Of a stretch of DNA of 64,000 bases, positions 14,817 through 56,716 are shown in pieces. The stretch lies in the NCBI GenBank assembly GCA_030611885.1, contig JAUWOY010000011.1:9456-73455 (forward strand), written 5' to 3'. Made by a program: the position numbers and the translations under genes. The notes under the pieces were generated by a model. That model did no database searches. It worked only from the letters and a program-made list of their open reading frames with translations, and was not told where the DNA came from. How positions within the stretch are numbered: position 1 is the first letter of the stretch; each line of letters begins with the position of its first letter. Source of the DNA: Chloroflexota bacterium (lineage in GTDB: Bacteria; Chloroflexota; Anaerolineae; VGOG01).

Positions 14817-15443
14817 GTGGACAGGCGAGTGGCAGTTTTCCTGGATCGTGACGGGGTGATTATTCGCGATGTTCACCTGCTAACCCGGTCGTCGGAAATC
14901 CAGCTCTATCCGTATTCGGCTGCCGCGATTCGCGCTTTGAAAGACGCGGGCTTCCTGGTTATCGTCGTGAGCAATCAGACGGTTGTCGCACGCGGGCTGG
15001 CGACAGAGGCGGACGTCGAGCGCATGAACGCCGAGATCCAGCGTCTCCTCCAGCAGGCAACCGGGGCCAGTATTGATGCCTTTTATTCTTGCCCCCATCA
15101 TCCCCATGCGACGATGCCGGCATACCGCGTGATCTGTGAATGTCGCAAGCCACGACCGGGCCTGTTGCTACGAGCCGCCCAGGAGCATCACGTTGATCTA
15201 GCCGCCAGCTACATGGTGGGTGACCGTATAACCGACATCATTGCGGGCAAGCGCGCGGGATGTACATCCGTCCTGGTGCAGACCGGCGCGCATACGCACA
15301 AGCCGATTGAAACGGATGAAGATTTGTCGCGATTTGACGGGCAACCTGATTTTATCTGTGCTGATCTGGGCGAGGCGGTGGACTATATAAAAGCGGTCAA
15401 CGGTCAGCGGTCAGCCATCAGCCTGGAGCAGGCCGAACGATGA
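14817..15443 (+). CDS. gmhB: D,D-heptose 1,7-bisphosphate phosphatase (HAD)
   Basis: FLDRDGV, SNQ, CPHHP…CECRKP, MVGD. Confidence 0.9.
   Translation: MDRRVAVFLDRDGVIIRDVHLLTRSSEIQLYPYSAAAIRALKDAGFLVIVVSNQTVVARGLATEADVERMNAEIQRLLQQATGASIDAFYSCPHHPHATMPAYRVICECRKPRPGLLLRAAQEHHVDLAASYMVGDRITDIIAGKRAGCTSVLVQTGAHTHKPIETDEDLSRFDGQPDFICADLGEAVDYIKAVNGQRSAISLEQAER
15393..15423 (+). repeat. Heptamer array GCGGTCA-type x4 in the gmhB 3' end
   Basis: GCGGTCA ACGGTCA GCGGTCA GCCATCA encodes AVNGQRSAIS. Confidence 0.8.
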
Positions 15444-16180
15444 GAGCTATGGTGTTATGTGCTGGTTATGGCATCCGCCTGGGTGATTTGACCCGCAGAC
15501 TCCCCAAGCCGATGCTGCCGTTGCACGATAAGCCGCTGTTGGCCTACACGTTGCGTTATCTGGCCCAGAACGGCTTTACTGAAATTGCGATCAACCTGCA
15601 CTATATGCCGGACATGATCCCAGCTTACTTTGGGAGTGGCGAGGAGTTTGGGATCAAGATTGTGTATTCCTACGAGGAGCAACTCTTGGGCACAGCCGGC
15701 GGTCCGAAACAAGTTGAGGATTTTCTAGCAACGGAGGGGGATTTCCTGGTCTTGTACGGAGACTTGCTCATTGACCAGCACCTGGCGCCCATGGTGGCTC
15801 TGCATCGTGAGAGAAGCGGAATCGCGACGTTGATGGTCCACCAGCGTCACGCTTCAAACAGCCTGGTATGTATGGACCAAACACATCGGATTACCGGCTT
15901 CCTGGAGCGGCCTACCGAAGATCAGCGACGGGCCAACCCATTCCCGTGGGTCAATTCAGGGGTGTATTTGCTTAATGCAAAGATATTCGAGTATATTCCG
16001 CCTGATGTGCCGTATGACTTTCCGCGTGATGTGTTTGCCAAACTGGTTCGACATCCGGATAAGCACCTCTATGGTTTCCCTTTAACAGCGTACCGTTGCG
16101 CCATCGACTCGCCAAAGCGGTACAAAGAAGCCCAGGCAGCTATTACAGAAGGGCGGTATCAAGGTCCGTTCAGCTCCTAA
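15440..16180 (+). CDS. Sugar-1-phosphate nucleotidyltransferase (HddC/GmhD-like)
   Basis: LCAGYGIRL…PKPMLP, LGTAGG, YGD, NSGVY. Confidence 0.85.
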   Translation: MRAMVLCAGYGIRLGDLTRRLPKPMLPLHDKPLLAYTLRYLAQNGFTEIAINLHYMPDMIPAYFGSGEEFGIKIVYSYEEQLLGTAGGPKQVEDFLATEGDFLVLYGDLLIDQHLAPMVALHRERSGIATLMVHQRHASNSLVCMDQTHRITGFLERPTEDQRRANPFPWVNSGVYLLNAKIFEYIPPDVPYDFPRDVFAKLVRHPDKHLYGFPLTAYRCAIDSPKRYKEAQAAITEGRYQGPFSS

Positions 16181-16199
16181 ACGGCGGAGAGTTACCAGG

Positions 16200-17977: not shown

Positions 17978-18339
17978 TTCTGTCGAAAAGTGTGTTGCGG
18001 ATACGGTGCGCTTGCCTTTGCCAGAAAACAATGCCCTTGTTGACCAACCCGATCCGGCGCTAGCAGTCGGACGATCAGGTGCAAGTTCATTGGCCATATC
18101 TGCCTCGCCTAGCCGGCATCCGGGTTGACTATAAAGCGTTGCTGGCTATCCCTGCTGCGCGGACTCGTAGTCTCGAGCATCTACCTTCTGAGAATGATCA
18201 TGCCAACTCTTCCCGGTATGACGCTGGCTATGGCTATCTTTGTCTGGATCGGCACTAAGGTCTGGCATCCTGAACAGTACTTAGTCCACCGGCAGCGCAG
18301 GGTCGTCTCTCTCAAATGCGCTCGAGGGGTAATGCGGAT

Positions 18340-21300
18340 ATGCTCATCTATGCTCTCGGGATCACGTCGCTGATTGCGTCGGTTGCGATACAACTTGGGT
18401 TGGTGGCGCTTCCCAACTCGATGCTGTCCACTCTCATCAGTACCGGAGTGCTTTTCGTTCTGCCAGGTTTTTTGTTCTCAGAGCTGCTTCTTGGACAAGA
18501 TAAGCTGTCTCTCATTGAAAAGCTGGCCACGTCCTTCGTCCTGGGGATCGGATTACTGATCATCCCTGGCACGGTCTTACTGGCCTGGCGGGCCAGCCTG
18601 ACTAGCCTGATATGGGTATCCGTAGGCACCAACGTGATCCTGATCGTGCTGCACATGGTGATGCGGCCCGGGGACAGACAACCCCGAGTAGTCGCCAAAG
18701 CAACAGGGTGGCGCAGTGTGCCGAAGCGGATGTGGTGTGCTATCTGGGGAAGTAAGGATCCCAATTTGGAGTTTGTCCTTCTGTCGGTTGTCTTGGTAAT
18801 ACTTATTGCGTTCTTACTCTATTTCATCAAGTCTGAGGCGAGGATGTGGGGCTACGGCACCGAAGACGGTTGGTCCTACGCCCCGTATGTGCGCAGGTAT
18901 GTTGATGATTCCTGTCTCAATCCCGACGGCACGGTCTGTCCGAAGCTAGACGGGAGGGTGCGCCTTTCAACCTGGTTGGCTCTGTTGGCGCTGGTGGGTA
19001 GGGTCTCCCAAGCAAATCTGAATGATATGTACTGGCTCCACCTGACGCCTATTTTTGCAGGTGCCTGTGTTCTGAGTTCCTATACTCTCGCCAAGACTTT
19101 GTTCAGACGGACCAACGCTGCGCTATTTGCGTCCCTTGTGCAGATGGGCTACTATGCCACCTCGATGATCAAGGATACACACCACTGTTACAGCGACGGG
19201 CTCGCATTGTTCGCGCGGATTCACGAGGACAAGTGGTTTGCCGTCTGGGTGGTTTTCCCCATAGCACTCGTGTTTGCGTTCAGATATCTTGAAACAAGGA
19301 GGCCTAGATACCTGGCAGGTTTTGTGCTTTCTGCTGCGGCGGCGACAATCATTCACCCCATGGGGTATGCTTCGCTGGGTCTTGGCCTTGCCTCTTTTGC
19401 CCTGGTTCACGTTCTCTCCAGTTTGTGTCCTGGTCAGCAACTAGGAAAAACCAAATCCAGATCCGTCTCATGGTTGCACTTCTTATGGCATCAACTCCTG
19501 AGGGGAAAAACCAAGTTTGTGGCCTTCGGTATTCTATTTGTGATTCTCGGATGCCTGCTCATCCATCCCTGGCTGGCGAGGCAGGCGTTGATCCAAGCAG
19601 GGAGCAAAGCCTTTTCACTAGAGGATCTCCCTAACGTGGAGTATCTCATTGATTTCTACAACCAGCGGCGCCACTTGGTTATGTCCTCTCTAGATTGGTA
19701 TAGGGCTCGTTCCACGCTTTTGGAGCATCCTGTGATTATTTTGGCCCTCTTACTAACGCCAGCACTGATCAAGTACCTGCGCAGAGATTGGGCCGCTCAG
19801 TTTCTTTTTTCGAACATGGTCTTGCCGCTCATTGTGATCTATAATCCTCTGACAGCGCCCTTGTTGGGCAAGTTGATTCCAGCCGGTATACTCTTTCGCG
19901 TTCGTTATATGCTGCCCATATCGCTTGTGGTCGGGTTTGTGTTGTATAAGCTGATCGAGTTCTTGCGGCAGCGCCTAGTCGCCGCTCGTGTTCTGGCACC
20001 TCAACGCATCCTGTGGTCGGCGTTGCCGCTGTGCGTAGTTGCAGGTCTCATCGCATCATTGCATGGTATGATTGGGGATGGCATCAGCGAGATCTCCCAG
20101 TGGGTCTCCGTCAACCCCGCTCAACGTGATGTGTTGGAATATTTGCACGATTACTTGACCGAGGAAAGTGTGGTTTTGGCGGATCCGGAGCAGATGATTC
20201 ACCACTTGCCCGCTTTCACTAGCAAGACTTATCCCTTAATTCACAGGAGTTGGGCGATTGACTCGGACGTTGTGGACAATGTCGAGTACTTTTACGACGC
20301 CGAGCTTGTTGATCGTTCGATAATTGATACACTGCGCCGCTACGATGTCAGATACGTGATCATTGAGGGAGGGAGTTCCCTTGGCCTGCAATTCAGGTTG
20401 CTGCCGTATCTGTTCCCGAAGATATATCACAATGACACTTACGAACTATATGAAGTAGCCTCTGAGTTACGGCCCAACCATGTTATCACCGGCAACACCT
20501 ATCTCGTCGGTGGAGAATGGGACAAGGCCATCGCCGAGTACGAGGCAGCTCTCACACTTGATCCCGACTGCCCTCTGGCTCATCTTGGACTGAGTCAGGT
20601 ATATCAAGCCCGAAGTGAAATGGAGATCGAATTAGCGAAGCGGGCGAGAGCAACAGCCGACCTATTGGCTCACCTCGAACTGAATCGGGAATATCAAGCC
20701 CTGGCTGAAATAGAGATCGAATTAGCGGAGCACGAGAGAGCAATGGCCGACCTATTGGCTCGCCTTGAACTGAATCGGGAGTATCAAGCCCTGGCTGAAA
20801 TGGAAAAAGCCGTAGTGGAACTCGATAGGGCGGTGGCAGCAAGCCCAGAAAATGCGGGACTGCATTTCTATGTCGGGCAAACATACGCAAACTTGGCGGA
20901 GATGACGGAAACCGGTGCTCAGACTTACCTCCAAAAGGCTGCTGAAGCGTATCGGCGATCTTGGGCCCTCAACTGGGAAAACACCACAGCAGGCGAAGAG
21001 TTGATGGAAACGTGCGAGAAACTGGAAACCTGCTATCAGCAGGCCTGGTGCCAGCAACCAGGCATGCTCGACGAGGTGATAGCGCACTTTGAAAAGGCAG
21101 TAGAGTTGAATCCAGAAGATGGCGAATTGCAACTCACGCTGGCGCGCTGCTACAAAGCGGCGGGGTGCTATGAGGAAGCAATCGCTTCCTATCTGGCTGC
21201 CGCCGATGTAGCAGCGGATGGGCACACGAAGGCGGATCTCTTTGCAAAGGTAGGCCAGATCTATGAGGCCCAAGGCCAGATCTACGAGGCTCAAGACCAA

Positions 21301-22308
21301 TTCGATAAGGCCATTGTCCACTATCTGGCTGCCGCCGATGTATCAGCGGATGGGCCCCTGAAGGCCGATCTCCTTGAAAAGGCAGGCCAGCTCTATGAGG
21401 CTCAAGGCCAATTGGATAAGGCTATTGTCCAGTACCTGACCGCAGCGCAGGCTACGGCCGACTCTGGCACGACGCGGAGATTATACCGACGTGTGGCGGA
21501 CGTGTACCTGGCAGCCGGCAATCCAGAAGCTGCCCGGAGTCTCGTCCGGAGCGTGTTATGGAACGAGCCCCGGAACGCTGGGTCGTGGTCGCTGGCTATG
21601 GACGCTTATCCCGCTCTGATAGAGTGGTACGAAGCGCAGGAAGAAATGACCAGGGCCAGAGCGATGGCCTGGGAGCTCCTTGCCATCGTTCCCAAGCACG
21701 AAGCCGCTTTGCAGGCGTTTACTTACTATGACTTTATTGCGAACTTCAGCGCCGCCGAAGTGGAGACTGAGGAGGAGTCCTCCCCCCACGTCAAGCTCAC
21801 CGACGGATGTCGTCTATCCGCATTCACCATGCCCGCCACCGGCGATCAGCGATCGGTGCTTCTCATGTCTCCAGAGGCTCAGGTCTCTTACAGGCTCAAG
21901 ATGCCATCGGAGCCGTCGGTGCTTCGGTTCGGCCTGGCCATGAACCCTGAGACCTGGGAGCTGGGTGGAGACGGCAGCACCTTTGAGGTCTACGTGACGG
22001 ATGAAGGGGGAGCACATCGGTCGTTGTTTTCGGAGCACATCAGCAACGATCCCGAGGATCAGAAATGGCACGACCGAGAGGTGAGCCTGGCGCCTTACGC
22101 CAGTCAAGAGGTGACCATCACCTTCGTAACTCAACCGGGCCCAGGGGCCGATTCCACCGGGGACGAGGCTGGCTGGGCAACCCCGCGAGTGATGTGGGCA
22201 CGGACGGAGGAGCGGGACTTTTGGGACTATTCGGAAGAGGAGATATCGGCGGCGGATACTCTGAAGAGATCCCCGGAGTCTTTCACGACGCTGTACCCGC
22301 TGGATTGA
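18340..22308 (+). CDS. Large polytopic membrane protein (GT-C/DUF6077-like) + TPR array + C-terminal beta-sandwich domain
   Basis: About 14 TM segments in the first ~580 aa; DVRYVI…YHNDTYELYEV soluble domain; TPRs (AIAEYEAALTLDP, EKAVELNPED); C-terminal GDGSTFEV…WHDREVSLAPY…GWATPRV. Confidence 0.75.
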   Translation: MLIYALGITSLIASVAIQLGLVALPNSMLSTLISTGVLFVLPGFLFSELLLGQDKLSLIEKLATSFVLGIGLLIIPGTVLLAWRASLTSLIWVSVGTNVILIVLHMVMRPGDRQPRVVAKATGWRSVPKRMWCAIWGSKDPNLEFVLLSVVLVILIAFLLYFIKSEARMWGYGTEDGWSYAPYVRRYVDDSCLNPDGTVCPKLDGRVRLSTWLALLALVGRVSQANLNDMYWLHLTPIFAGACVLSSYTLAKTLFRRTNAALFASLVQMGYYATSMIKDTHHCYSDGLALFARIHEDKWFAVWVVFPIALVFAFRYLETRRPRYLAGFVLSAAAATIIHPMGYASLGLGLASFALVHVLSSLCPGQQLGKTKSRSVSWLHFLWHQLLRGKTKFVAFGILFVILGCLLIHPWLARQALIQAGSKAFSLEDLPNVEYLIDFYNQRRHLVMSSLDWYRARSTLLEHPVIILALLLTPALIKYLRRDWAAQFLFSNMVLPLIVIYNPLTAPLLGKLIPAGILFRVRYMLPISLVVGFVLYKLIEFLRQRLVAARVLAPQRILWSALPLCVVAGLIASLHGMIGDGISEISQWVSVNPAQRDVLEYLHDYLTEESVVLADPEQMIHHLPAFTSKTYPLIHRSWAIDSDVVDNVEYFYDAELVDRSIIDTLRRYDVRYVIIEGGSSLGLQFRLLPYLFPKIYHNDTYELYEVASELRPNHVITGNTYLVGGEWDKAIAEYEAALTLDPDCPLAHLGLSQVYQARSEMEIELAKRARATADLLAHLELNREYQALAEIEIELAEHERAMADLLARLELNREYQALAEMEKAVVELDRAVAASPENAGLHFYVGQTYANLAEMTETGAQTYLQKAAEAYRRSWALNWENTTAGEELMETCEKLETCYQQAWCQQPGMLDEVIAHFEKAVELNPEDGELQLTLARCYKAAGCYEEAIASYLAAADVAADGHTKADLFAKVGQIYEAQGQIYEAQDQFDKAIVHYLAAADVSADGPLKADLLEKAGQLYEAQGQLDKAIVQYLTAAQATADSGTTRRLYRRVADVYLAAGNPEAARSLVRSVLWNEPRNAGSWSLAMDAYPALIEWYEAQEEMTRARAMAWELLAIVPKHEAALQAFTYYDFIANFSAAEVETEEESSPHVKLTDGCRLSAFTMPATGDQRSVLLMSPEAQVSYRLKMPSEPSVLRFGLAMNPETWELGGDGSTFEVYVTDEGGAHRSLFSEHISNDPEDQKWHDREVSLAPYASQEVTITFVTQPGPGADSTGDEAGWATPRVMWARTEERDFWDYSEEEISAADTLKRSPESFTTLYPLD
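20602..20803 (+). repeat. 90-bp in-frame tandem duplication
   Basis: TATCAAGCC recurs at 20602, 20692 and 20782; 30-aa unit E(M/I)EIELA…ADLLA.LELNREYQALA. Confidence 0.9.
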
Positions 22309-30112: not shown

Positions 30113-31236
30113 GCATGCGCCTGATTTTGGATGCCCGCACCGCTACCAGCCACTTCCCCGGCATCGGCCGCTACGTGGTTAACCTGGCCCGTGCGATGGT
30201 GCCGCTTCTGGACGAGGATGAGCGGCTGATCCTGCTGCGCGACCTCATCCAGCCTTCACGTTGGGACCTGACAACCTTGACAGAGGAGCGAGTGCAAATA
30301 GTGGATGTTCCCGCCTCCCCCTTCTCACTTCACCAGCAGTGGATCATCCCGCGCTTGCTGCGCCGCCTGGGGGCCGACGTTTACCACAGTCCCTACTACC
30401 TGATGCCCTACCGACCCCAGCTACCAACAGTAGTGACGGTGTATGACCTGATCCCTCTCCTCTTTCCACAGCACGTTTCTCCCACAGCCCGTTTGCTGTT
30501 CCGATGGATGACAGCCCTGGCCCTGCGGACGGCATCCCGCGTCATCGTAATCTCCCAGGCCACCCGTCGTGACTTGCTGACCCTTTACCATCTCCCTCCA
30601 CAAAAGGTCACAGCCATCCCCCTGGCGGCCGACCCAGGCTTCCATCCACCGCCTCCCACCGAAGTGGAGCGAGTGCGTCGCAAATATGCCCTTCCAGAAG
30701 ACTACCTCCTCTACCTGGGCATCAACAAGCCTCACAAGAACCTGGTTCGCCTGATTGATGCTTTCTCACGCATCACGTTTCACGTTTCACGTTTCACGCT
30801 CGTCATCGCCGGCGCCTGGGACTCTCGCTACCCTGAACCACGGCAGCGAGCGGAGGCCCTGGGGCTTGAAAACGTCGTCCGTTTCCTGGGGCCGGTGCTG
30901 GAGGCAGACCTGCCGGCTCTCTATGCCGGTGCTGCCCTATTTGTGTTCCCCTCCCTCTACGAGGGCTTCGGCCTGCCGGTGCTGGAGGCCATGGCCTGCG
31001 GGACGCCGGTAGTCTGCTCGAATACATCCAGCCTGCCGGAGATCATGGGCGAGGCTGCGCTGACCTTCGATCCTCTCAATGTTAAGGAGATGGCGGCCAA
31101 GATTGAGGAGGCTTTGGGTGATGAGTCGCTGCGAGGGGAGATGAGAGAGAAGGGCCTACGGCAGGCGGCGAAGTTCTCCTGGGAGAGAACGGCACGGGAG
31201 ACGTTGGAGGTTTATAGAGAGGCAGCGAGCCATTGA
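30109..31236 (+). CDS. GT4 glycosyltransferase (mannosyltransferase-like)
   Basis: GIGRY, PHKN, FPSLYEGFGLPVLEAMACG. Confidence 0.9.
   Translation: MSMRLILDARTATSHFPGIGRYVVNLARAMVPLLDEDERLILLRDLIQPSRWDLTTLTEERVQIVDVPASPFSLHQQWIIPRLLRRLGADVYHSPYYLMPYRPQLPTVVTVYDLIPLLFPQHVSPTARLLFRWMTALALRTASRVIVISQATRRDLLTLYHLPPQKVTAIPLAADPGFHPPPPTEVERVRRKYALPEDYLLYLGINKPHKNLVRLIDAFSRITFHVSRFTLVIAGAWDSRYPEPRQRAEALGLENVVRFLGPVLEADLPALYAGAALFVFPSLYEGFGLPVLEAMACGTPVVCSNTSSLPEIMGEAALTFDPLNVKEMAAKIEEALGDESLRGEMREKGLRQAAKFSWERTARETLEVYREAASH
30766..30800 (+). repeat. Heptamer array TCACGTT x5 inside the GT4 gene
   Basis: TCACGCA (TCACGTT)3 TCACGCT encodes SRITFHVSRFT. Confidence 0.9.
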
Positions 31237-34139: not shown

Positions 34140-37100
34140 GTGATTATGCTTACAAAGATAAGCGTTTTTTGCGACAAGGTTATTGAAGCCGGTTGGCTGG
34201 TGGCCGTTATCGTGGTGCCCCTTTTCTTCAACGTCTTCTCCGACCGCGTTTTCGAGCCCGACAAGCTTACTCTGCTGCGCTCTATCGCCCTGGTGATGGC
34301 CGTCGCCTGGGCCATCAAGGTGCTGGAAGTTGGAAGTTGGAGGTTGGAAGTTGGAAGTTGGAAGTTGAGAACTCCACTGGTTCTCCCCACGCTGCTGCTG
34401 GTGACGGTGTACATACTGGCTACCATCGCCTCTGTGTCTCCCCGAGCCAGCCTCTGGGGCTCTTACCAACGCTTGCAGGGTACCTACACCACCTTCTCGT
34501 ACATTGTGATCTTCTTCCTGGCTCTGCAGGGTCTGCGCACTCGCGAGCAGATCGAACGATTGGTTACCACTGCCATCCTGGTCAGCTTGCCTATCGCTTT
34601 GTATGGAATCCTGCAGCATTATGGTCGAGATCCCTTGCCCTGGGCAGCTTCTGTCACGACTCGCGTAGCCTCCAACATGGGCAATTCCATCTTCGTGGCC
34701 GCCTACCTGATCATGGTGGTTCCCCTTACCCTGGCTCGTGTTGTTGAGACCTTCTCCGCCATTCTGGCCGATGAGGAAGGCATTATCTCCGACGTGGCCC
34801 TGGCGACCTGCCACGTTTTCATTCTGGCTGCTCAGTTGATCTGCATCTTCTTCACTCAGAGTCGTGGTCCTATGTTGGGGTTGCTGGCGGGCTTCTTCAG
34901 CTTTGTGCTGCTGTCACTGACTCTATTGCGCCGACGGGCAGAGGATCAGACCTCGCTCAGCCTCAGCGATGGGATCAAGGCCCTCGCTGCAGTGATCCTC
35001 AGCGGCCTGGTCGGATTTTTAGTAGGCATGGCGGGCGGTGCTCTCCTGGGCAAAATCGGTTTCTTTGGCGGTGCTCCTGACAAGATGCTTCTATCCGCCA
35101 TTGGATTTTTTGTAGGGATAGCGAGCGGGGTGGTTTGTATTGGATTCATGGTCATCCTGCGCAAAGGATGGAAGTGGCTCTGGCTGGCCTGGATCATACA
35201 GGCCCTTGTCCCGCTGGCCTTTTTGATAGTTTTCAATTTGCCTGGCTCCCCCATAGCATCGTGGCGAGACCTACCCTACATCGGCCGCTTGGGACGTGTC
35301 TTCGAGACCGAAACCGGCACTGGCCTGGTACGAGTGCTCATCTGGGAGGGGGCTGTGGATATGGTAACGCCCCACGAGCCCATCCAGCATCCCTCTGGTC
35401 AGCCCGACAGGTTGAACCCTTTGCGGCCTCTCATAGGCTACGGGCCGGAGTCAATGTTTGTGGCCTACAATCGCTTCTATCCGCCAGACCTGGCTCACAT
35501 CGAAGCCCGTAAGGCATCCCCTGATCGTTCCCACAACGAGACCTTCGATGCGCTGATAATCACGGGTCTGGCGGGCTTCGTAGTCTACATCTTGCTCTTT
35601 GGCAGTGTATTCTATTATGGCTACAAGTGGCTGGGGTTGATCGAGAGCTCCAGGCAGCGCAACGTCTTCATTGGCTTATTCCTTGTTGGCGGTCTGGCTG
35701 TTGCTCTTTTCTTTTGGCTCTGGAGAGGGGTCGCGCTCGTGGGTGTGAGCTTGCCGTTAGGTATGGCCTTCGGCCTGGTCGTATACCTGGTCGTGTCCGC
35801 AATTACGTTTTATAACCGGCCAAAAGAGAACCAGGTACAAACCTCCAACTTCCAACCTCCAACTTCTAATCTCCAATCTCCAATCTCCAACCTCCAACCT
35901 CCAACCTCCAACTTCCAATTCCTACTCATCGCTCTGGTATCGGCCTTGCTGGCTCATTTCGTGGAGATCAACCTTGGTATCGCCATCGCCGCCACCCGCA
36001 CCTATTTCTGGGTTTACGCAGCCTTGCTGGTCGCTGCAGGCCACTACCTGGGGACTGCTGAAACGGTTGTGCCTGTTGAGGTGCCAAAGCAGCCTCGCAG
36101 GAAGCGGCATAGAAGCCGGCGAAGTCAGCTCCAGGCCCCCAGCAAGTTATCTTCGCCAGAGATCAAGGCACGAACCTCCAACCTCCAACCTCTAACCTCT
36201 AACCTCCAAGTTATCATCTACTCTTTGTTGATAGGTCTTGTCCTGGTAACCCTGGGGTACGATTACATCACCCCTCAATTCGACATCTCGGCCAGGGGCT
36301 ACAGCTTGCTCTGGCTGCTCGTTCTTACCTGGCTTGTGGGCGGTGCTATAACCGTGGCTCTGACGAGACGTAGCAATTGGCCTTTGGCTTCTCTACTTTA
36401 CTCATTTATCTCCCTGGGGTGTTTTCTCATCTTCTTCGTCATTCGCACTCGTCAGATGCAGATCGGGATCACCGTGACATCCCTGGGCGACTTGCTGAGG
36501 CAAGCCAGTGCCGTGGCCAATGGTCTGGTGCTCTATTATGTCTTTGCTCTACTTCTCCTCCTGGCCATTGCAGGTGCGTTGCTGCCTGGGAGATCATTGC
36601 CCGCCAGCTTTTGGCGGCCCCGCTATGGATGGCTTTATCCCTTTTTGGTGGTCGGGGTCGTGGCCTTGATCTTCACCACCAACCTCAGCGTTATCAGGGC
36701 CGATATCATCTACAAGCACGCCAAATCCTACTTTGGGGCGGGCCAATATGATGCCAGCATCGCCCTCTATCAGCAGGCCGTAAAGCTTGCTCCCAATGAG
36801 GACTATTACTACCTCTTCCTGGGCTCGGCCCTCTTGGAAAAGGCCAAACAGGCGCCAAAGGGGCCAGCCACACTGCCGGAAAACATCAGCGCTGCTGAGC
36901 TACTCTCGTTCACGCCGCAGCAGATTGCCAGCCTGGGCCGCGAAGACATACTGAATGTCAGTCAGGCAGTCCTGGCCGAAGCGCGACGGCTCAACCCGCT
37001 CAACACCGACCACAGCGCTAACCTGGCCCGCCTCAATCGTACTTGGGGCCAGATTGCTTCCGACCCGGCTCGGCGGACCGAGAAGTTGGCCCAAGCTTTA

Positions 37101-37977: not shown

Positions 37978-38019
37978 AAATCCAAAACCCAAAGTTCAAA
38001 ATCCAAAGTCTGAAATCCA
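37978..38019 (+). repeat. Intergenic heptamer array AAATCCA-type x6
   Basis: AAATCCA AAACCCA AAGTTCA AAATCCA AAGTCTG AAATCCA. Confidence 0.8.
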
Positions 38020-38031
38020 AAGAGGACTAAT

Positions 38032-41420: not shown

Positions 41421-41695
41421 CAAAAGATGATGATCAGGAGGAGTAGGCGGGTCGGACATGGTAGAGAAGAGGGGTCGTGGGCTGAAAGCTCCTCGCAGGG
41501 AGATCCGCCGAAGGTCGCCTGGGAGTCTGCTGGCTGATGGCAGATGGCTCGCAGCTTCTGCAGCAGGTCAGTACGGGTAAGCCCGTTACAGCAGAATGAG
41601 AGAACAGCGGATCTGCCTGGCAATCTGCTGTTAAGCAAGGTGGTACCACGGGAGGTGAGCCTCTCTCGTCCTTGACGGGAGGGGTTCTTTTGTTT
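41421..41695 (+). promoter_or_regulatory. T-box riboswitch with Val specifier and terminator
   Basis: Stem I AGAG/GCTGAAA motifs; GAAG-GTC specifier (41514-41516); T-box AAGCAAGGTGGTACCACG (41633-41650); terminator stem 41660-41684 with T tract. Confidence 0.9.
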
Positions 41696-41712: not shown

Positions 41713-41762
41713 TTGACAAATCAGGCGACTTCCCCTATACTTCATGTGCCACTATGGTGGCA
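41713..41762 (+). promoter_or_regulatory. Promoter plus palindromic operator of the TA cassette
   Basis: TTGACA-N17-TATACT (41713-41741); TGCCAC-N4-GTGGCA (41747-41762). Confidence 0.75.
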
Positions 41763-41785
41763 ATCTTTGGACGGAGGTGATCAAA

Positions 41786-42112
41786 ATGGAGACGGCTAAA
41801 CTAACGGTGCGTTTGCCCAGGCAGCTTCACCAGACCCTGCGGGAACGGGCAACGCGATCGGCGCAGTCGCTGAACAAGGTCATCGTTAACACCCTTTGGC
41901 GAGGATTGGAGCGCAAGGAGATCACTCCCCCCTCAGAATATGAGCGCACGATGGCCGCTATTCGCAAGACGGGATTGGTGACGACCCTGGGACCAGAGTG
42001 GGACAAGTATATCGAAGATGCTCCGGATATGACCGCTGAAGAGCTTCGTGAGGCGCTGAGAGGAATATCCCCTCTGTCTGAAGATATCATCGCGGATCGG
42101 GGCGAGCGCTGA
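41786..42112 (+). CDS. Ribbon-helix-helix (Arc/HicB-like) antitoxin
   Basis: KLTVRLPRQLHQTLRERA…SLNKVI; C-terminal PLSEDIIADRGER; GGAGGTG RBS. Confidence 0.8.
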   Translation: METAKLTVRLPRQLHQTLRERATRSAQSLNKVIVNTLWRGLERKEITPPSEYERTMAAIRKTGLVTTLGPEWDKYIEDAPDMTAEELREALRGISPLSEDIIADRGER

Positions 42113-42588
42113 TGGCTTCTTTCTACTTTGACAGCAGCGCATTGGTCAAATATTACATCGCTGAGATCGGCACCCACTGGGTGAAGATCTTGGTTGATGA
42201 TCGAGTCGGTGATGAATGGCGCAACGCCGTCGCCACTTCATCTCTCAGCGTTGCGGAAGTGGTGGCTGCTTTTACTAAGCGGCATCTGATGCGCGAGATT
42301 TCCACGGGGCTGAAAGCGGCCCTTATTTCTCGCTTTCTGAGGGATGGGCGCCAACGGTGTACATTGCTTGAAGCGGATAGCACGGTCATTGATACCGCCG
42401 TACAACTCATCCAACGCCATCCCCTGCGCGCCTATGATGCTGTGCAGTTAGCCACCGCTCTGATCTTGAATAATGCCTTGATCGCCGATCAGCTACCCCC
42501 CCTAACATTCGTCTCCGCTGACAACGTTCTCTGCAGAGCGGCGCGGGCGGAGGGGCTGCCAGCCGAAAATCCCAACGAGTATCAGTAG
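42112..42588 (+). CDS. vapC: VapC/PIN toxin
   Basis: FDSSALVKYY, AE, LRAYDAVQLA, FVSAD. Confidence 0.9.
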   Translation: MASFYFDSSALVKYYIAEIGTHWVKILVDDRVGDEWRNAVATSSLSVAEVVAAFTKRHLMREISTGLKAALISRFLRDGRQRCTLLEADSTVIDTAVQLIQRHPLRAYDAVQLATALILNNALIADQLPPLTFVSADNVLCRAARAEGLPAENPNEYQ

Positions 42589-42713: not shown

Positions 42714-45506
<2,793 letters not shown>

Positions 45507-45568: not shown

Positions 45569-46828
45569 ATGATCCAAGCTGACCTTCTCATCCACAGCGC
45601 CGCCCAGCTTCTCACCCTCGCCTCCGATGGCCCCAAGCGCGGGGCAGCGATGGGGGAGTTGGGCATTATCGAGCACGGAGCGGTGGCTGTCAAAGATGGC
45701 CTCATCGCCCTGGTGGGGCCGACGCCGGAGGTGCGGGGGCAGGTCACGGCTGCCGAGGAGATGGACGCCGCGGGCAAGGTGGTCATGCCCGGCTTTGTTG
45801 ATCCCCACACCCACCTGGTCTTCGCCGGCGACCGAGCGGGGGAGTTCGAGCAGCGGGTCAAGGGGGCTGCTTATTTGGAGATCATGGCTGCCGGTGGGGG
45901 GATCATGTCCACCGTGCGGGCCACGCGGGCGGCGAGCGTGGAGCAACTGGTGGAGGAGAGCCGGGCGCGGCTGGATCGGATGCTGGCCCACGGCACCACT
46001 ACCGCCGAGGCTAAGACCGGCTACGGCCTGGACGTCGAGACCGAGCTCAAGATGCTGGAGGCCATCCGCCGCCTGGACGCGGAGCACCCCGTAGACCTGG
46101 TCCCCACTTTCCTGGGCGCCCACGCGGTGCCTACCGAATACCAGGGCCGCGCCGATGAGTATGTGGACCTGGTCGTCGAGGAGATGCTGCCGATGATCAA
46201 ATCCCAAATCTCAAATCCCAAATCCCAAATTTTCTGCGACGTCTTCTGCGACGAGGGGGCCTTCACCCTGGAGCAGTCTCGACGAGTGCTGGAGGCGGCG
46301 CGCGCCCTGGGCTTCGGGCTGAAGATCCACACGGACGAGTTCAGGCCACTGGGAGGCGCGAGGCTGGCGGTGGAGCTGGGGGCGGTCTCGGCCGATCACC
46401 TGGTCTGCACCCCCGACGATGAAATCGAGTTGCTGGCGAGGTCGGACACCATCGCCGTGGCTTTGCCGGGTACACCCTTCGGTCTGGGGCGCCACGAGTA
46501 TACCCCCGCCCGGCGGATCATTGACTCCGGAGGCGCTTTGGCCCTGGCCACCGACCTCAACCCCGGCACTTGCTGGTGCGAGTCCATGCAATTTATCATT
46601 GCCCTGGCCTGCCGCTTCATGAAAATGACCCCCGCCGAGGCCATCGTCGCTGCTACCATCAACGCCGCTCACGCCATCGGGTTGGGCCACCAAGTGGGGA
46701 GTTTGGAGGTCGGCAAGAAAGCCGACGTCCTCGTCCTTGATATTCCCGACTATCGCCATCTGCCCTATCGCTTCGGTGTCAACCTGGTGGATAGGGTGAT
46801 AAAAAGCGGTGAGTTGGCCTGTACTTGA
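45569..46828 (+). CDS. hutI: Imidazolonepropionase
   Basis: PGFVDPHTH, GGGIMSTV, EAKTGYGL, GAHA, KIHTDE, SADH, ATDLNPG. Confidence 0.95.
   Translation: MIQADLLIHSAAQLLTLASDGPKRGAAMGELGIIEHGAVAVKDGLIALVGPTPEVRGQVTAAEEMDAAGKVVMPGFVDPHTHLVFAGDRAGEFEQRVKGAAYLEIMAAGGGIMSTVRATRAASVEQLVEESRARLDRMLAHGTTTAEAKTGYGLDVETELKMLEAIRRLDAEHPVDLVPTFLGAHAVPTEYQGRADEYVDLVVEEMLPMIKSQISNPKSQIFCDVFCDEGAFTLEQSRRVLEAARALGFGLKIHTDEFRPLGGARLAVELGAVSADHLVCTPDDEIELLARSDTIAVALPGTPFGLGRHEYTPARRIIDSGGALALATDLNPGTCWCESMQFIIALACRFMKMTPAEAIVAATINAAHAIGLGHQVGSLEVGKKADVLVLDIPDYRHLPYRFGVNLVDRVIKSGELACT
46198..46230 (+). repeat. Heptamer array CAAATCC x4-5 inside hutI
   Basis: Encodes KSQISNPKSQI just before FCDVFC. Confidence 0.9.
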
Positions 46829-48316: not shown

Positions 48317-48367
48317 GAGTTGACCACCCATGTCCATACACTGGGTGGTTGGAAAGGAGTTGGCGAA

Positions 48368-48694
48368 ATGATTGATGTGGTCAAAGCGGCGGATGTCGAG
48401 CCGGTGGAGATGGTCCCTGGGGTGTGGCGACGAATGTTGACCTACGGGGAGCAGGTCATGGTCGTCCAGGTCACCCTGGAGGAGGGGACGGTTGTTCCAG
48501 CCCATCGGCATCCTCACGAACAGATCACCTACGTCATCGAAGGGGAGCTGTCCATGGAGGTCGAGGGTCGGACCCATGTCCTGGGAGCGGGGGATAGCCT
48601 GCTGTTTCCATCCGATGTGGAGCACGGGGCCACCGCTCTCCAGCGCACCCTTGTCCTTGATACCTTCTCCCCACCGCGGGAGGAGTACAAATAG
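48368..48694 (+). CDS. Cupin-domain protein
   Basis: HRHPHEQ, PSDVEHG, FSPPRE. Confidence 0.85.
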   Translation: MIDVVKAADVEPVEMVPGVWRRMLTYGEQVMVVQVTLEEGTVVPAHRHPHEQITYVIEGELSMEVEGRTHVLGAGDSLLFPSDVEHGATALQRTLVLDTFSPPREEYK

Positions 48695-48723
48695 CAGATA
48701 TCCAATAGCTAATAGCAAATACC
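48689..48723 (+). repeat. Heptamer array xAATAGC x5 spanning the cupin stop codon
   Basis: AAATAGC AGATATC CAATAGC TAATAGC AAATACC. Confidence 0.7.
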
Positions 48724-48751
48724 AAACCGAAAGGAGTTCAAGAGAAGAGAA

Positions 48752-49408
48752 ATGGTAAAGATCAGACTACGTCGTACAGGCAAGAAGAAACAAGCCAGCT
48801 ACCGAGTGGTGGTGGCCGATTCCCGAGCGCCGCGCGATGGGCGCTTCATCGAGATCATCGGGTTCTACAACCCCCGCACGGATCCACCCACTGTTCAGAT
48901 AAAAGAGGACCGCGCTCTTTACTGGCTATCGCAGGGGGCTCAGCTTTCCGATGCAGTGGCCAGGTTGTTGAAAAAACAGGGCACCCTCGACCGATTCGCG
49001 CGCTTGAAGGAGGGAGAGGACTTGGAAGCTCTACTGGCCGAGGCGACTGTAGAGGAAGTCGTGGCTGAGGAAGTTGTAGAAGAAGTCGCGGCCGAGGAGG
49101 TTGCCCCGGTGGAAGAAGCGCCGGTGGAGGAAGCTGCTCCGGTGGAGGAGGAAACGCCGGTGGAAGAAGAAGCGCCGGTGGAGGAGGCTGCTCCGGTGGA
49201 GGAAGAGCCGGGGGAGGAAGCTGCTCCGGGGGAGGAAGAGCCGGTGGCGGAAGCTGCGCCGGTGGAGGAAGAGCTGGTGGAGGAGGCTGCGCCGGCGGAG
49301 GAAGAAGCGCCGGTCGAAGAGGCTGCGCCGGCGGAGGAAGAAGCGCCGGCGGAGGAGGCTGAACCCCCTGAGGCCGAAGTCGCTGAGGAGGTGTCTATAG
49401 CTGATTAG
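48752..49408 (+). CDS. rpsP: 30S ribosomal protein S16 with a long acidic repeat tail
   Basis: MVKIRLRR…[18 protein letters not shown]; about 120 aa of (E/A/P/V) repeats. Confidence 0.95.
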
Positions 49409-49931: not shown

Positions 49932-49964
49932 CTCAGAACATCCCAAGCAAAAGGAGGCGATCCA

Positions 49965-50195: not shown

Positions 50196-50202
50196 CAACC
50201 GA

Positions 50203-50238
50203 GGCGGGGGCTCCGTTGCGTGCCCCCGCCCCTTTTTC
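50203..50238 (+). terminator. Intrinsic terminator-like hairpin
   Basis: GGCGGGGGC / GCCCCCGCC followed by CCTTTTT. Confidence 0.55.
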
Positions 50239-50251
50239 AGGGCGCAGTGAG

Positions 50252-50788: not shown

Positions 50789-50802
50789 GATAGGAGGTTT
50801 CG

Positions 50803-51939: not shown

Positions 51940-51947
51940 GGGAACTG

Positions 51948-51979
51948 TACGAATCTACGAATTTACGAATTTACGAATT
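51948..51979 (+). repeat. Intergenic octamer array TACGAATT x4
   Basis: TACGAATC (TACGAATT)3. Confidence 0.9.
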
Positions 51980-51990
51980 GAGGTAGAATA

Positions 51991-53058: not shown

Positions 53059-53098
53059 TGAGCTTGGCTGATTTATGTACTTGATGAGGAGTTGAGGA

Positions 53099-53464: not shown

Positions 53465-53865
53465 TCACGGAAGCTGACACAGACGATGTGCGCTGCCAGC
53501 TACGGGAGGCGCTGGCAGCGAGGACGGAGATCGTCTTCGCCTACCTGCACGGCTCTTTCACCGAGGGGCTCCCTTTCCACGATGTAGATGTGGCGGTCTA
53601 CCTGGATCCAGCTTTGGCTACGGCCACGGACATCTTCGATTACGAGATGAGCCTCTCAGTGGAGCTGACTCGCGCTTTTCGTTTTCTGGTGGATGTACAC
53701 GTCCTCAACAGCGCTCCCTTGGGTTTTCAACACAGCGTTCTGCAAGGAGAGGCATTGCTAGTGCATGATGAGGATGAACTGACCGATTTCATCGAGCGAG
53801 TGGCAATTGAATACATGGACTTCGCCTATCTGGGACGTCGTTATCTGTTGGAGGTGCTCCGATAA
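53443..53865 (+). CDS. mntA: MntA-type adenylyltransferase antitoxin
   Basis: AYLHGS…DVDVAV, VDVHVLNSAP. Confidence 0.8.
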   Translation: MDEQARVITEADTDDVRCQLREALAARTEIVFAYLHGSFTEGLPFHDVDVAVYLDPALATATDIFDYEMSLSVELTRAFRFLVDVHVLNSAPLGFQHSVLQGEALLVHDEDELTDFIERVAIEYMDFAYLGRRYLLEVLR

Positions 53866-54320
53866 TGATCGGGATAGATATCGAGCGCGTTAAAGAGCGT
53901 GCACGGGAGATTCGGGAGAGTCAGGAGAAGATCCGCCATTATGCTGCCCTACCGGATGCGGAATTTTTCGCCGACGAGCGCAATCTCTATACCGTGATGC
54001 ACTTGCTCCTCATTGCCATCGAAGCCACGGCTTCCTTGTGCACACATATCCTGGCCAAAACTGCTCGTAAAGCCCCTTCCAGCCACGCGGAATGTTTTGA
54101 AGGGCTACGAGACCTGGGAATAGTGGACGATGAACTGGCGAGTCATCTTGTGAAAATGGTCCGCTTTCGCAACCTGTTGGTCCATCGTTATTGGGAGATA
54201 GACCCGGTCAGGGTACTGGGCTACGCCCGAGAGAACTTGGGGGATTTCGAGGCTTTCTTGGCAGCCGTGGAAGGCTTCGTGAAGAGAGATTTGGAGGAGG
54301 AAGTTGAGAGGAGATCATGA
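53865..54320 (+). CDS. hepT: HepT/DUF86 RNase toxin
   Basis: Rx4HxY motif RNLLVHRY. Confidence 0.9.
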   Translation: MIGIDIERVKERAREIRESQEKIRHYAALPDAEFFADERNLYTVMHLLLIAIEATASLCTHILAKTARKAPSSHAECFEGLRDLGIVDDELASHLVKMVRFRNLLVHRYWEIDPVRVLGYARENLGDFEAFLAAVEGFVKRDLEEEVERRS

Positions 54321-56716
54321 CCGATAACTCGATCACTGCTTATTGCATGAAGTGCAGAGCTAAACAAGGGATGGAGAACCCGCAGCCGGTTTTCACCAAG
54401 GCCGGTCGGCCAGCCACGACGGGCACCTGCCCTGTGTGTGGAACCAAGATGTTCCGTATGGGCGAAACTCCTGCCCACGCTGGGCTTCCCAAGCCCAAGC
54501 CTAAGCCTAAGCCCAAGCCACGCCAACGCGACGGCAAGTTGGTCATCGTGGAATCGCCGGCCAAGGCCCGTACTGTCGGCAGGTTCCTGGGCCATCCCTA
54601 TCGCGTCAGGGCCTCCATTGGCCACGTGCGGGATCTGCTCAGGTCCCGCCTCAGCGTGGACGTGGAGAACGACTTCGAGCCTACCTATCGCATACCTAAT
54701 GAGAAGAGGGACGTGGTCAGGGAACTGCGGGAGGAGGTCAAGAAGGCTGGCGAGGTCTACCTGGCTACAGACCCCGACCGCGAGGGGGAAGCTATCGCCT
54801 GGCACCTCATGGAGGCGGCCCAAATCAGCAACGAGCAGGCCCGGCGCGTGGTCTTCCACGAGATCACTCGCGATGCCATTGACGAAGCATTCTCTCACCC
54901 CCGCGATATTGACATGCAACTGGTCAACGCTCAACAGGCCCGGCGCATCCTGGACCGCCTGGTGGGCTATAAAATTAGCCCGCTTCTCTGGGAGAATGTG
55001 CGCAACCGCACCACGGCCGGACGGGTGCAATCGGTGGCCCTGCGTCTCGTCGTCGAACGAGAGCGGGAGATCGAGGCCTTCGTGCCGGTGGAGTACTGGT
55101 CCATTGATGCAGAACTGGCCAAGCGGGAAGAAAAGTGCCGCAGTTTCACCGCCAGGCTGCACCGCATTCGCGGCGAGGAGGTGGATCTCAAGAGTGAAGC
55201 GGATACCCAGAAGATCGTAGATGATCTGGAGGAGGCGACCTATGTCATAACCAAGGTGCGCAAGGGCCAGCGGCAGCGAAATCCCTCGCCTCCTTACACC
55301 ACCAGCACCATGCAACAGGAGGCCTCCCGACGACTCGGCTTCACCGCCAAGCGCACCATGCGGATTGCCCAGCAACTCTATGCGGGGGTGGAGATCGGCG
55401 ATGAGGAATTGGTGGGCCTCATCACCTACATGCGCACCGACAGCGTCAATGTGGCTAAGGCCGCCCAGGAGGAAGCCCGCGCTTACATCGCCGAAAGGTT
55501 TGGCGCTAAATACAGGCCGGCCAAACCTCGCCGCTACAAAACCAAAGCCAAGGGCGCACAAGAGGCCCACGAAGCCATCCGGCCCACCTCGGTGCATCGC
55601 GAGCCCAAAGCCATAAAACAGTATCTCTCACGCGACCAGTACCGCCTCTACGATCTCATCTGGAAACGCTTCCTGGCCAGCCAGATGTCCTCGGCTATCT
55701 TCGATACCGTCTCCGTGGACGTAGTAGCAGATAGCAAATTGCAGATGGCTGATAGCGAGCTAACGGTAATCCCTGGCGATCAGCTATCAGCTATCAGCCA
55801 TAAGCCGGATTATCTCTTCCGAGCTACGGGATCCAGCATCCGATTCCGGGGCTTCTTGATCGTCTACGAAGAGGCCAGGGACGAGGATGAGGCTCTTGAA
55901 GAGGGTGAAGGCAAGATTCTGCCGCCGCTCTCCCAGGGCGAGATTTTGGACCTCTTGCGGCTCTTGCCAGAGCAGCACTTCACCAAGCCGCCGCCGCGCT
56001 ACAGCGAGGCCACCCTGGTCAGAACCCTGGAGGAGTACGGCATTGGCCGGCCCAGCACCTACGCGCCCATCATCTCCATCATCCAAACTCGGGGTTACGT
56101 GGATCGCGAGGCCAGACGCCTGTTCCCTACCGAGTTGGGCTTTATCGTCAACGATATCGTGGTGAAGCATTTCCCCGACATCATAAACGTGGATTTCACT
56201 GCTCGTATGGAGGCGGAGCTGGACCTCATCGCCTCAGGTGAGCGGGAGTGGGTGCCAATGTTGCGGGAGTTCTACGGCCCCTTCGATGAGGCGGTGAAAC
56301 AAGCCAGGCTCATTATGGAAAAGGTGGACTTTGGCCCGCAAGAGACTGGCGAGATATGTGAGAAGTGCGGCCATCCCATGGTCGTCAAGTTCGGCCGCTA
56401 CGGCAAGTTCATCGCCTGCAGCAATTATCCAGAGTGCCGCAACACCAAGCCCTACCAGATCAAGACCGGCGTGGCCTGCCCGGAGTGCGGCGGCGACCTG
56501 GTGGAGAAGCGTACGCGCAGGAAGCGGGTCTTCTACGGTTGCTCCAACTATCCTGAGTGTGAATTTTCTACCTGGAAACACCCCTTGCCCCAGCCCTGCC
56601 CCAATTGTGGCGGCCTGTTGACTGTTGCTGGCAAGGAAAGAGCCAAGTGTGTTAAATGCGAAGAGGTGGTGGAATTGACCCTACTGGAGGAGACGGAGCC
56701 GGCGGGGGCGGACTGA
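54317..56716 (+). CDS. topA: DNA topoisomerase I with an extra N-terminal zinc ribbon
   Basis: [43 protein letters not shown]-terminal C4 ribbons; N-terminal CMKC…CPVC plus PK linker. Confidence 0.96.
55727..55805. repeat. Inverted pair of heptamer arrays inside topA
   Basis: GCAGATA GCAAATT GCAGATG GCTGATA … GCGATCA GCTATCA GCTATCA GCCATAA; encodes [10 protein letters not shown]…DQLSAISHK. Confidence 0.85.

Follow-up and report, generated by a model that had tools for sequence, protein, structure and literature searches.

Heptanucleotide tandem arrays within and between the genes of an Anaerolineae bacterium: a known class of bacterial repeat in a new lineage

Introduction

Tandem heptanucleotide repeats have been known in bacteria for decades without, to our knowledge, an accepted mechanism or function. 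The broader category of prokaryotic long simple-sequence repeats (LSSRs) comprises units of 5-11 nt (Mrazek, Guo and Shah 2007, as summarised in PMC4679880 and PMC4692102). Here we describe arrays of this kind in a Chloroflexota bacterium of the class Anaerolineae (GenBank assembly GCA_030611885.1, designated G000), and in particular in a 64,000-nt stretch of contig JAUWOY010000011.1 (G000:C103:9456-73455) that is called the window throughout. The genome is a metagenome assembly of 3.45 Mb in 108 contigs, with 58% G+C and an estimated contamination of 5.6%. We conclude that G000 presents in a new lineage the heptanucleotide-repeat phenomenon already known as LSSRs and, in filamentous cyanobacteria, as short tandemly repeated repetitive (STRR) sequences, and we argue that its arrays probably arise by slippage in the register of the unit, filtered by selection.

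Four described systems come closest; the published accounts were available to us in part, and the comparisons that follow hold for those parts. LSSRs are head-to-tail repeats of scattered taxa in which period 7 is most abundant and for which polymerase slippage in a 7-nt register has been proposed (PMC4679880, PMC4692102), and in these respects G000 resembles them. Units that are not a multiple of three are expected there mainly outside genes, whereas about 150 of the 517 period-7 arrays of G000 lie in frame and deep in confident genes, and Anaerolineae are not among the lineages named in the available portions of the two sources. STRR sequences, Nostoc GGGGAYT and Xanthomonas GGGAATC are likewise tandem heptamers with several unit types per genome, whose length and sequence vary between close relatives while their place stays constant, and Xanthomonas shares with G000 the occurrence of inverted pairs, 70-75 in its case (PMC4692102). 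These repeats are described as mainly intergenic with G-rich units, in contrast to G000, which is dominated by units of the form CCAANNN.

Closest in build are elements of Geobacter metallireducens, in which either four heptanucleotides (GGGACCG, 49 copies) or five (MTYCTGA, 15 sites) stand in tandem and which occur both in and between genes (PMC2700814). They share the mode of four to five units with G000, but they comprise one or two units, have a GC-rich unit and have been read as regulatory, whereas G000 has more than 100 units, mostly AT-rich. The TAACTGA repeats of marine Beggiatoaceae, present also in some Cyanobacteria and Bacteroidetes, resemble our arrays in standing as 2-6 copies in spacers upstream of start codons, in their distribution over scattered phyla and in that stop codons in the unit limit entry into genes (PMC4679880). 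They differ in being a single unit with stops in one orientation and nearly all intergenic; the leading units of G000 are stop-free on both strands. Our literature search, which was thin on subscription journals, returned no description of such arrays in Chloroflexi or Anaerolineae, and none joining heptanucleotide repeats with intervening sequences, 23S rRNA and four-helix bundle proteins together.

Results

Period 7 is the leading repeat class of the genome

Arrays were called with Tandem Repeats Finder (TRF) and counted from three copies upward, window calls being made at score 30, and the null model consisted of two fifth-order Markov simulations of G000. By period, the genome holds 7 arrays of 5 nt, 71 of 6 nt, 517 of 7 nt, 125 of 8 nt, 56 of 9 nt and 17 of 10 nt, against 5 and 4 (period 6), 8 and 6 (period 7), 1 and 5 (period 8) and 3 and 0 (period 9) in the two simulations. 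The excess at period 7 is about 70-fold and places this class far above its neighbours, at a density of about 150 arrays per Mb; period 8 is a genuine second enriched class. A family defined by its period, as an earlier note on this DNA had proposed from the window, thus exists genome-wide, with period 7 ahead of periods 5, 6, 8 and 9. The features by which LSSRs are recognised, namely head-to-tail copies, a unit of 5-11 nt, at least three copies and an excess over composition-matched random sequence, are all present.

The unit repertoire is narrow and AT-rich

The same note had held that the arrays share their period and not their sequence, and in that form this is not supported, since the units are AT-rich and fall into few related families. 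Although 108 canonical period-7 units occur, nine of them account for 280 of the 517 arrays: AATATCC (47), AACTTCC (42), AACCTCC (39), AATCTCC (33), AAACTTC, AAAGTTC and AAAGCTC (25 each), AATGACC (24) and AAACGTG (20). When the leading units are re-phased they read CCAANNN, a core present in 226 arrays, and arrays of this type tend to begin NCCAA and end CCA, CCAA or CCAAN. The units average 41% G+C in a genome of 58%. Expressed per 10^5 genomic occurrences, heptamers with two and three G+C gave 55 and 34 arrays and those with five and six gave 1.6 and 1.0, so that the former are 35-50 times more array-prone per occurrence, an excess of AT-rich units that fits easier strand melting. The background frequency of heptamers was considered as the source of the repertoire and ruled out, unit use being independent of it (Spearman 0.04, p = 0.19).

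Array length is equally non-random. Among 625 period-7 arrays, 143 contain three full units, 214 contain four (28-34 nt) and 93 contain five, giving a distribution that peaks at about 4.5 units and does not simply decay. The four-unit mode is strongest in genes, yet it is also found in intergenic arrays (58 with four units, 50 with three and 21 with five), and a frame constraint, which would favour one plus three units, is therefore insufficient to explain it. Lengths of 7n and 7n+1 are avoided: 15 arrays measure 28 nt and 11 measure 29 nt, whereas every length from 30 to 34 nt is represented by 34-40 arrays. These troughs fit a first duplication that needs at least two bases of direct repeat 7 nt apart. 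Arrays of about four tandem heptamers, in many copies and both in and between genes, are also what characterises the Geobacter elements, but G000 lacks their single conserved unit and alignable copies, having 108 canonical units and only three pairs among 558 zones that share a heterogeneous 35-mer. Two of these three pairs share larger flanks, and copy-and-paste dispersal of whole arrays was rejected on these counts.

One unit recurs far outside the class. Exact (TTGGTCA)4 was found in at least 120 stretches, and among the matches listed are filamentous cyanobacteria, Planctomycetota, Bacteroidota, Verrucomicrobiota, Polyangiaceae, Acidobacteriota and others; 77 of the 120 loci of 8 kb listed (L039-L158), chosen for this motif, carry further period-7 arrays of other units. 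TTGGTCA belongs to the AATGACC class, which makes up 24 of the 517 arrays of G000, and it was the one unit that the cross-taxon search covered. The link to cyanobacterial STRR sequences drawn in the earlier note may hold for this one unit, which many filamentous cyanobacteria, but also the other phyla just named, carry in exactly this form. G000 itself stands outside the cyanobacteria: its 30 nearest GTDB relatives form one non-cyanobacterial class, and a T-box leader is present.

Arrays enter genes in a permissive frame and orientation

Genes were called with a crude finder of our own, based on longest open reading frames (ORFs) and a codon score, by which 88% of the genome is coding. On these calls, 259 of the 517 period-7 arrays lie inside ORFs, 115 across an ORF end and 143 outside; 159 are at least 150 nt from either end of the host ORF, and 151 lie in 98 ORFs of at least 200 aa with a high codon score. 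Every one of the 14 scanned hosts with two or more arrays contains Pfam domains, including three Wzy_C+TPR proteins, PMT_2, YfhO, GH38, GH65 and CoaE. The depletion of arrays from genes is only mild in G000: a position deep in an open frame of at least 200 aa is taken by 206 of the 517 arrays, against 67% of random windows. For the (TTGGTCA)4 loci of other phyla the corresponding figures are 25 of 337 period-7 arrays against 55% of random windows, a rough comparison, as the loci were sampled on a unit that contains a stop when read in one orientation, and as their G+C is not the same.

Of 255 arrays within ORFs, 238 have a unit free of stops on the coding strand, as must be the case by construction. 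In 173 arrays deep in genes, the sense strand is C+A-rich in 112, G+T-rich in 35 and neither in 26. The orientation of arrays outside genes is independent of local GC skew (40/20 against 35/18, odds ratio 1.03, p = 1.0), which rules out a replication-strand bias and indicates that the bias within genes reflects the peptides that are tolerated, not the direction of replication.

Two array-bearing ORFs, C57:7543-9447 (L183; GT9 and WecG) and C82:19823-23329 (L189; HAD and GH65), each join two enzyme modules. The joining of adjacent genes may have been aided by stop-free arrays, or such arrays may mislead ORF calling.

Arrays occupy a linker of valS and a loop of an amidohydrolase

Two arrays of the window, all of whose arrays are given on the plus strand, were followed through relatives, in the case of valS with a search of 31 genomes of one class, G000 and its 30 nearest relatives. 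In valS (42714-45506), abutting TRF calls of AATGACC x2.3, CCAAATC x2.6 and ATTGGTC x4.6 form a composite at 44624..44684 that encodes ...QMTNDQIPNPNWSLVIGHWSL...; its outer units are mutually reverse-complementary and can form a hairpin, and the RNA fold with 15-nt flanks has a free energy of -34.5 kcal/mol. The composite falls exactly between the Pfam catalytic domain, which ends at residue 613, and the anticodon-binding domain, which starts at residue 659. The valS genes of 29 relatives were compared, one row that represented a spurious ORF being dropped. The loop measures 24 residues in G000, against 20-22 residues of plain sequence in distant members of the class, and its content varies widely: AATGACC/CCAAATC/ATTGGTC arrays occur in G000, G002, G008 and G017, AACCTCC and CCAATAT types in G001, G005 and G012, and GGATCAG types nested within remnant AATGACC arms in G004 and G007. 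Many of these arrays are inverted pairs able to form hairpins.

In the neighbouring Amidohydro_1 enzyme (45569-46828), CAAATCC x4.7 at 46198..46230 encodes residues 210-221 (IKSQISNPKSQI). Of the 13 same-family relatives shown, 11 have a 13-residue loop, as does G021; the exceptions are a longer composite in G004 and a plain longer loop in G003. Several distant orthologs (L227, L229-L231) have a loop of the same length. With the length thus fixed, one genome has homogenised the array to CAAATCT and another to CAAATCC. An AlphaFold2 (AF2) model, moderate in quality (mean pLDDT 62, pTM 0.60, 13-row alignment) and used for local helix-loop-strand assignment only, places residues 210-221 at a helix end and the loop before a strand, with block pLDDT dipping from 91 to 68.

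In these alignments, the valS and amidohydrolase arrays overwrite a variable linker or loop with little net change in length, and they are not simple inserts. The earlier suggestion that arrays add 7-aa pseudo-repeats as insertions is not supported here, both loops being about as long as the plain loops of distant orthologs, while the idea that arrays sit in tolerant places is borne out by the interdomain linker of valS and by the helix end and connecting loop of the amidohydrolase.

Two other small in-frame elements were seen in the valS genes of relatives (L003, L004, L005, L009, L012, L017, L027), at sites following residues ~246-255 and ~764: a C7-AAAG-TT-G7 hairpin with the peptide SPPKLGG.KGG, and an element reading CCTGAGC...GTCGAAGGG with the peptides LSLSKG / PELVEG / FGQAQGR. 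At times they are nested in each other or within a heptamer array, and one lies opposite window positions 36173-36209 in the congeneric genome G001.

Arrays turn over rapidly at fixed sites

G001 is an independent assembly from the same genus as G000, with about 90% nucleotide identity. In the 307 kb sampled its array density is the same (48 arrays), and 24 of the 642 period-7/8 arrays of G000 could be placed. Length is equal for 10 of the 24, nine of which are the same array and one of which is unrelated sequence. Arrays called intergenic changed by -14, -8 (a period-8 array), +7 and -7 nt, and the seven in genes by 0 (four cases), +3, -42 and +24 nt, always in frame. Several arrays of G000 face unrelated sequence of comparable length in G001, and a 73-nt array of G001 stands opposite a mere 'GGT' in G000. 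Among relatives, array density ranges from 0 to 175 per Mb in samples of 20-60 kb, with other units. Loss of mismatch repair was ruled out as a cause: all 31 class genomes gave a match to MutS_V and 28 of the 31 a match to MutL (DNA_mis_repair), G000 included, in array-rich and array-poor genomes alike.

Arrays, often inverted, bracket PF05635 genes

The earlier note had suggested looking for a gene family with arrays repeatedly at its flanks, and one was found. The four PF05635/TIGR02436 'four helix bundle' genes of G000, C83:48317-48858, C37:38152-38710, C38:44865-45310 and C54:39699-40187 (L263, L276-L278), lie between protein genes outside the window, and all four have period-7/8 arrays on both sides, against 80 of 3001 called genes and 21 of 897 small genes in the same genome ((80/3001)^4 = 5e-7). 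In three of the four the arms measure 32-45 nt, are 80-91% complementary and stand 382-480 nt apart, and array sequence also encodes the C-terminal tail of the C83 protein (ESTNP repeats). In relatives, 26 PF05635 genes with full flanks have arrays on both sides in 17 cases, on one side in 6 and on neither in 3, with inverted units in at least nine. Five array-bearing genomes of other phyla (Nostoc, a second filamentous cyanobacterium, a member of the Cyclobacteriaceae and two Pirellulales) all have PF05635, and the nine loci checked there carry arrays on both sides in seven cases and upstream only in two.

Inverted-unit pairs in G000 have a bimodal gap distribution, with 29 pairs at less than 40 nt, none at 100-300 nt and five at 300-500 nt, and four of the five rows in this last group (three cassettes) hold PF05635 genes. 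An inverted partner within 80 nt was found for 47 of 515 arrays, so that about a tenth of the arrays form one side of a hairpin. Candidates for other cargo enclosed by inverted arrays were rejected: the cases of 1.0-1.2 kb hold an amidase-like gene and an ABC ATPase, both ordinary genes, and a 422-nt case is part of a Ser/Thr/Pro-rich ORF and no cassette. Unlike transposable elements of the miniature inverted-repeat kind (MITEs) or REP doublets forming hairpins (REPINs), with their many near-identical copies, terminal inverted repeats and conserved ends, 13 hairpins of AATGACC and AAATCCC units (-13 to -45 kcal/mol) have individual unit order and number and unconserved flanks, apart from one 61-nt composite that recurs, nearly unchanged, in valS of G000 and at two loci in G017.

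The family is known from the intervening sequences (IVSs) of 23S rRNA in Coxiella and Leptospira, which encode S23p. As in the cassettes of G000, a PF05635 ORF stands there within terminal inverted repeats, with a stem of about 28-45 bp and an element of about 430-560 nt (PMC4990558, in the part available); the G000 cassettes differ in lying between protein genes, in having stems of tandem 7-8-nt units and in accounting for few of all arrays. S23p of Xanthomonas campestris is a homopentameric toroid (PMC4990558), and the only match in the PDB was 2gsc, with 5 chains. According to the portions of the sources available, X. campestris is rich in heptamer repeats with many inverted pairs (PMC4692102), and PF05635 resembles Avd, a protein of diversity-generating retroelements (DGRs; PMC10053308). 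A DGR-like setting was rejected, the two RVT_1 genes of G000 being on contigs other than those of the PF05635 genes.

The remaining arrays of the window

Period-7 arrays had been named at eleven places in the window, and TRF calls confirm ten. The exception lies in the T-box leader at 41421-41676 (98.6 bits against a gathering score of 93), where a degenerate four-unit run of GMTGGCW, gctggct gatggca gatggct cgcagct, is visible by eye at 41529..41556 and gives no TRF call. This leader is followed by two small ORFs, 41744-42112 (weak HicB match) and 42112-42588, and then by the valS start at 42714. Pfam supports six hosts, a HAD-like hydrolase, a GT4 glycosyltransferase, a TPR protein, valS, the Amidohydro_1 enzyme and topA, and translation in the host frame is open through each in-gene array, as expected if arrays enter conserved genes in frame.

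AGCGGTC x3.4 at 15392..15415 (a period-14 reading reaches 15422) forms part of the C-terminal tail of the HAD-like hydrolase (ORF 14817-15443), where 15392..15422 translates to ...KAVNGQRSAIS.... TCACGTT x3.7 at 30773..30798 lies inside the GT4 glycosyltransferase (30109-31236); G001 has an array of equal place and length with one additional unit intact. The 1278-aa TPR protein (34140-37976) carries three arrays. TGGAAGT x6.3 at 34324..34367 has given way in G001, over most of its length, to an array of AAAATCC (net difference +3 nt); AACCTCC/AACTTCC/AATCTCC x11.3 at 35840..35918, which encodes ...TSNFQPPTSNLQSPISNLQPPTSNFQ..., is six units (42 nt) shorter in G001; and AACCTCC x5.3 at 36173..36209 has in G001 a 24-nt insertion of a different small element within the array. 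In topA (54317-56716), a degenerate heptamer run begins at 55727 and is followed by ATCAGCT x2.9 at 55779-55798, and the sequence of the region 55727..55798 is unrelated in G001.

Three further arrays fill spacers. TCCAAAG/TCCAAAA x6, or a 14-mer x3, at 37981..38022 lies between the stop of the TPR gene (37976) and the start of a Glycos_transf_4 gene (38032) and is kept in G001 with point changes. A CAAATAG-type array x5.6 at 48688..48726 overlaps the stop of a cupin gene (48320-48694) and takes up the spacer ahead of rpsP (48752). The period-8 array TACGAATC/TACGAATT x4.0 at 51948..51979 stands between the dprA stop (51939) and the next start (51991) and is one unit shorter in G001; its unit classes also flank the PF05635 gene on C83.

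Repeats of other periods were also seen. The rpsP ORF (48752-49408) encodes an S16 protein of 218 aa whose Pfam domain spans residues 8-66 only, and its C-terminal extension (49036-49361) consists of 18/36-nt and 27-nt tandem repeats with about 14 copies of the 18-mer. In the N-terminal region of topA, a hexamer array, CCCAAG x5.3 at 54488-54519, lies between a DUF5679 zinc-ribbon-like N-terminus and Toprim and has two additional 6-nt units in G001. A 90-nt tandem repeat (2.5 copies, 85% matches) occupies 20576-20801 inside a 1330-aa TPR protein (18316-22308).

Discussion

We propose that the arrays of G000 are heptanucleotide, and in some cases octanucleotide, repeats of the LSSR/STRR kind, and that they were probably made by slippage in unit register and filtered by selection, without a new device. 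Misalignment in the register of the unit, by a slipped strand or by template switching, would make arrays grow, shrink and homogenise, and it would act on a small, lineage-specific set of AT-rich units. Changes in unit steps, concerted homogenisation, the avoidance of lengths 7n and 7n+1 and the preference for AT-rich units all fit such misalignment. Between genes, selection would tolerate steps of any unit number. Within genes, an array would be retained if its unit is stop-free on the coding strand, if the net length keeps the frame, if the peptide is mostly hydrophilic, as read from a C+A-rich strand, and if the site is a variable loop, linker, tail or membrane-protein loop, and it would there replace older loop sequence at about equal length.

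Several observations weigh against slippage as a complete account. The concentration of unit choice, with nine units in 280 of 517 arrays, goes far beyond what simple slippage on seeds arising by chance would predict, and array lengths have a mode at four full units, with no monotonic decay, between genes as well as within them. Nor does slippage alone account for exact (TTGGTCA)4 arrays in cyanobacteria, Planctomycetota, Bacteroidota, Verrucomicrobiota and others. The valS loop holds different arrays in different genera, with newer arrays nested in the apex of an older hairpin, and a 72-nt stretch containing the valS composite is identical at 71 of 72 nt in G017, a member of a different family whose valS flanks are only about 75% identical to those of G000 (0.74 and 0.76 in the 90-nt windows next to it). 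G017 carries an almost identical 61-nt composite, (AATGACC)2(CCAAATC)2(ATTGGTC)4.6, in frame in two unrelated genes, valS (L010) and L038:9292-9353. Together these copies suggest that a finished array was transferred or inserted. Finally, inverted arrays bracket PF05635 genes far above chance, a hint that at least some members of the array family originated on an element.

This last point leads to an alternative that we regard as possible, though doubtful: that the arrays are the arms, or ORF-less or half-deleted derivatives, of a selfish hairpin cassette with a PF05635 gene, whose toroidal homopentamer would read five motifs spaced 7 nt apart. The bracketing of PF05635 genes on both sides in G000, its relatives and other phyla argues for it, as does the division of inverted pairs into tight hairpins and gaps of PF05635 size. 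Six class genomes in which PF05635 was not matched (G015, G016, G018, G023, G024, G026) together hold two arrays in about 152 kb sampled, the structurally characterised S23p homopentamer comes from heptamer-rich X. campestris (PMC4990558, PMC4692102, as far as those texts were available; 2gsc), and the period-8 array at 51948 shares its unit classes with the flanks of a PF05635 gene. However, G000 has four such genes against 642 arrays, and the dominant CCAANNN family, with its 226 arrays, flanks none of them. Most arrays have no inverted partner within 80 nt, and the three zone pairs sharing a heterogeneous 35-mer make recent copy-and-paste rare. The association is also imperfect across genomes, with G025 being array-rich (7 in 40 kb) on a sub-threshold PF05635 match and G030 having two PF05635 genes and no array in 40 kb. 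No S23p-like ORF was detected in 873 kb around the (TTGGTCA)4 arrays of other taxa with our own HMM, which was built from Anaerolineae sequences and may be insensitive. The cassette may merely insert into pre-existing hairpins, and related genomes are non-independent samples. We know of no binding of S23p to repeats.

The earlier note had inferred a dedicated seeding process or the scar of a mobile element. The first part is not supported, slippage being simplest, and the second is partly supported by the PF05635 cassettes between inverted arrays. In its widest form the cassette hypothesis would make the heptamer repeats of bacteria the footprint of a widespread selfish PF05635-bearing hairpin element and not a by-product of slippage, with the pentamer setting both the period and the mode of about 4.5 units, and with solitary arrays such as those of valS and topA as decayed or miniature derivatives. 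We consider this generalisation speculative and fairly unlikely.

It is also conceivable, but in our view decidedly unlikely, that the arrays are functional cis-elements, either phased sites to which a regulator binds or RNA structures governing translation or the processing of mRNA, a role proposed for the four-heptamer elements of Geobacter (PMC2700814) and for the TAACTGA repeats of Beggiatoaceae (PMC4679880) in the parts of these accounts available. Position lends this some support, with 236 of 517 arrays at -150 to +60 nt of a called start codon and three window arrays (37981, 48688, 51948) filling spacers directly upstream of a ribosome-binding site, although proximity to start codons is partly an artefact of longest-ORF calls and short spacers. 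The mode of four to five units matches the four- and five-heptanucleotide elements of G. metallireducens (PMC2700814, same limit), and some intergenic arrays are identical in G001 despite differing flanks. The tendency of CCAANNN arrays to start and stop on the CCAA core points the same way, but core-bounded ends can come from the trimming of degenerate end units by TRF. More than 100 units, the dominant ones genus-specific, are hard to fit to one regulator, unrelated arrays occupy the same valS loop across genera, and arrays lie deep in essential enzymes where no regulatory logic is obvious.

A role as contingency loci, length-variable on/off or loop-length switches like those of pathogens, is highly improbable. 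Close relatives do differ in unit number (by -42 nt in the TPR membrane protein and by +/-7, -8 and -14 nt in spacers), and many hosts are envelope glycosyltransferases or membrane proteins resembling O-antigen ligase, but all seven in-gene arrays compared with G001 keep the frame, contrary to the switch function raised in the earlier note. Arrays also occur in single-copy essential genes, valS and topA, where loss of frame would be lethal, and the length of the amidohydrolase array is constant in 11 of the 13 same-family relatives shown. An assembly or binning artefact, for which only the 108-contig metagenome assembly and its estimated contamination speak, is so very unlikely as to be negligible, because the same arrays recur at orthologous places in independently assembled relatives, G001 among them, while reading frames stay open and arrays are present in isolate and complete genomes of other phyla.

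G000 offers a dense and well-controlled case of a familiar phenomenon, in which arrays overwrite loops and linkers of essential enzymes at constant length, unit choice and array size are strongly non-random, and arrays turn over quickly at fixed sites. Specific bracketing by arrays was seen for one gene family alone, the pentameric S23p/Avd-like family. Annotation is affected as well: arrays free of stops extend or fuse ORFs and put odd peptides, such as SNLQPPT and KSQISNP repeats, into otherwise conserved proteins.

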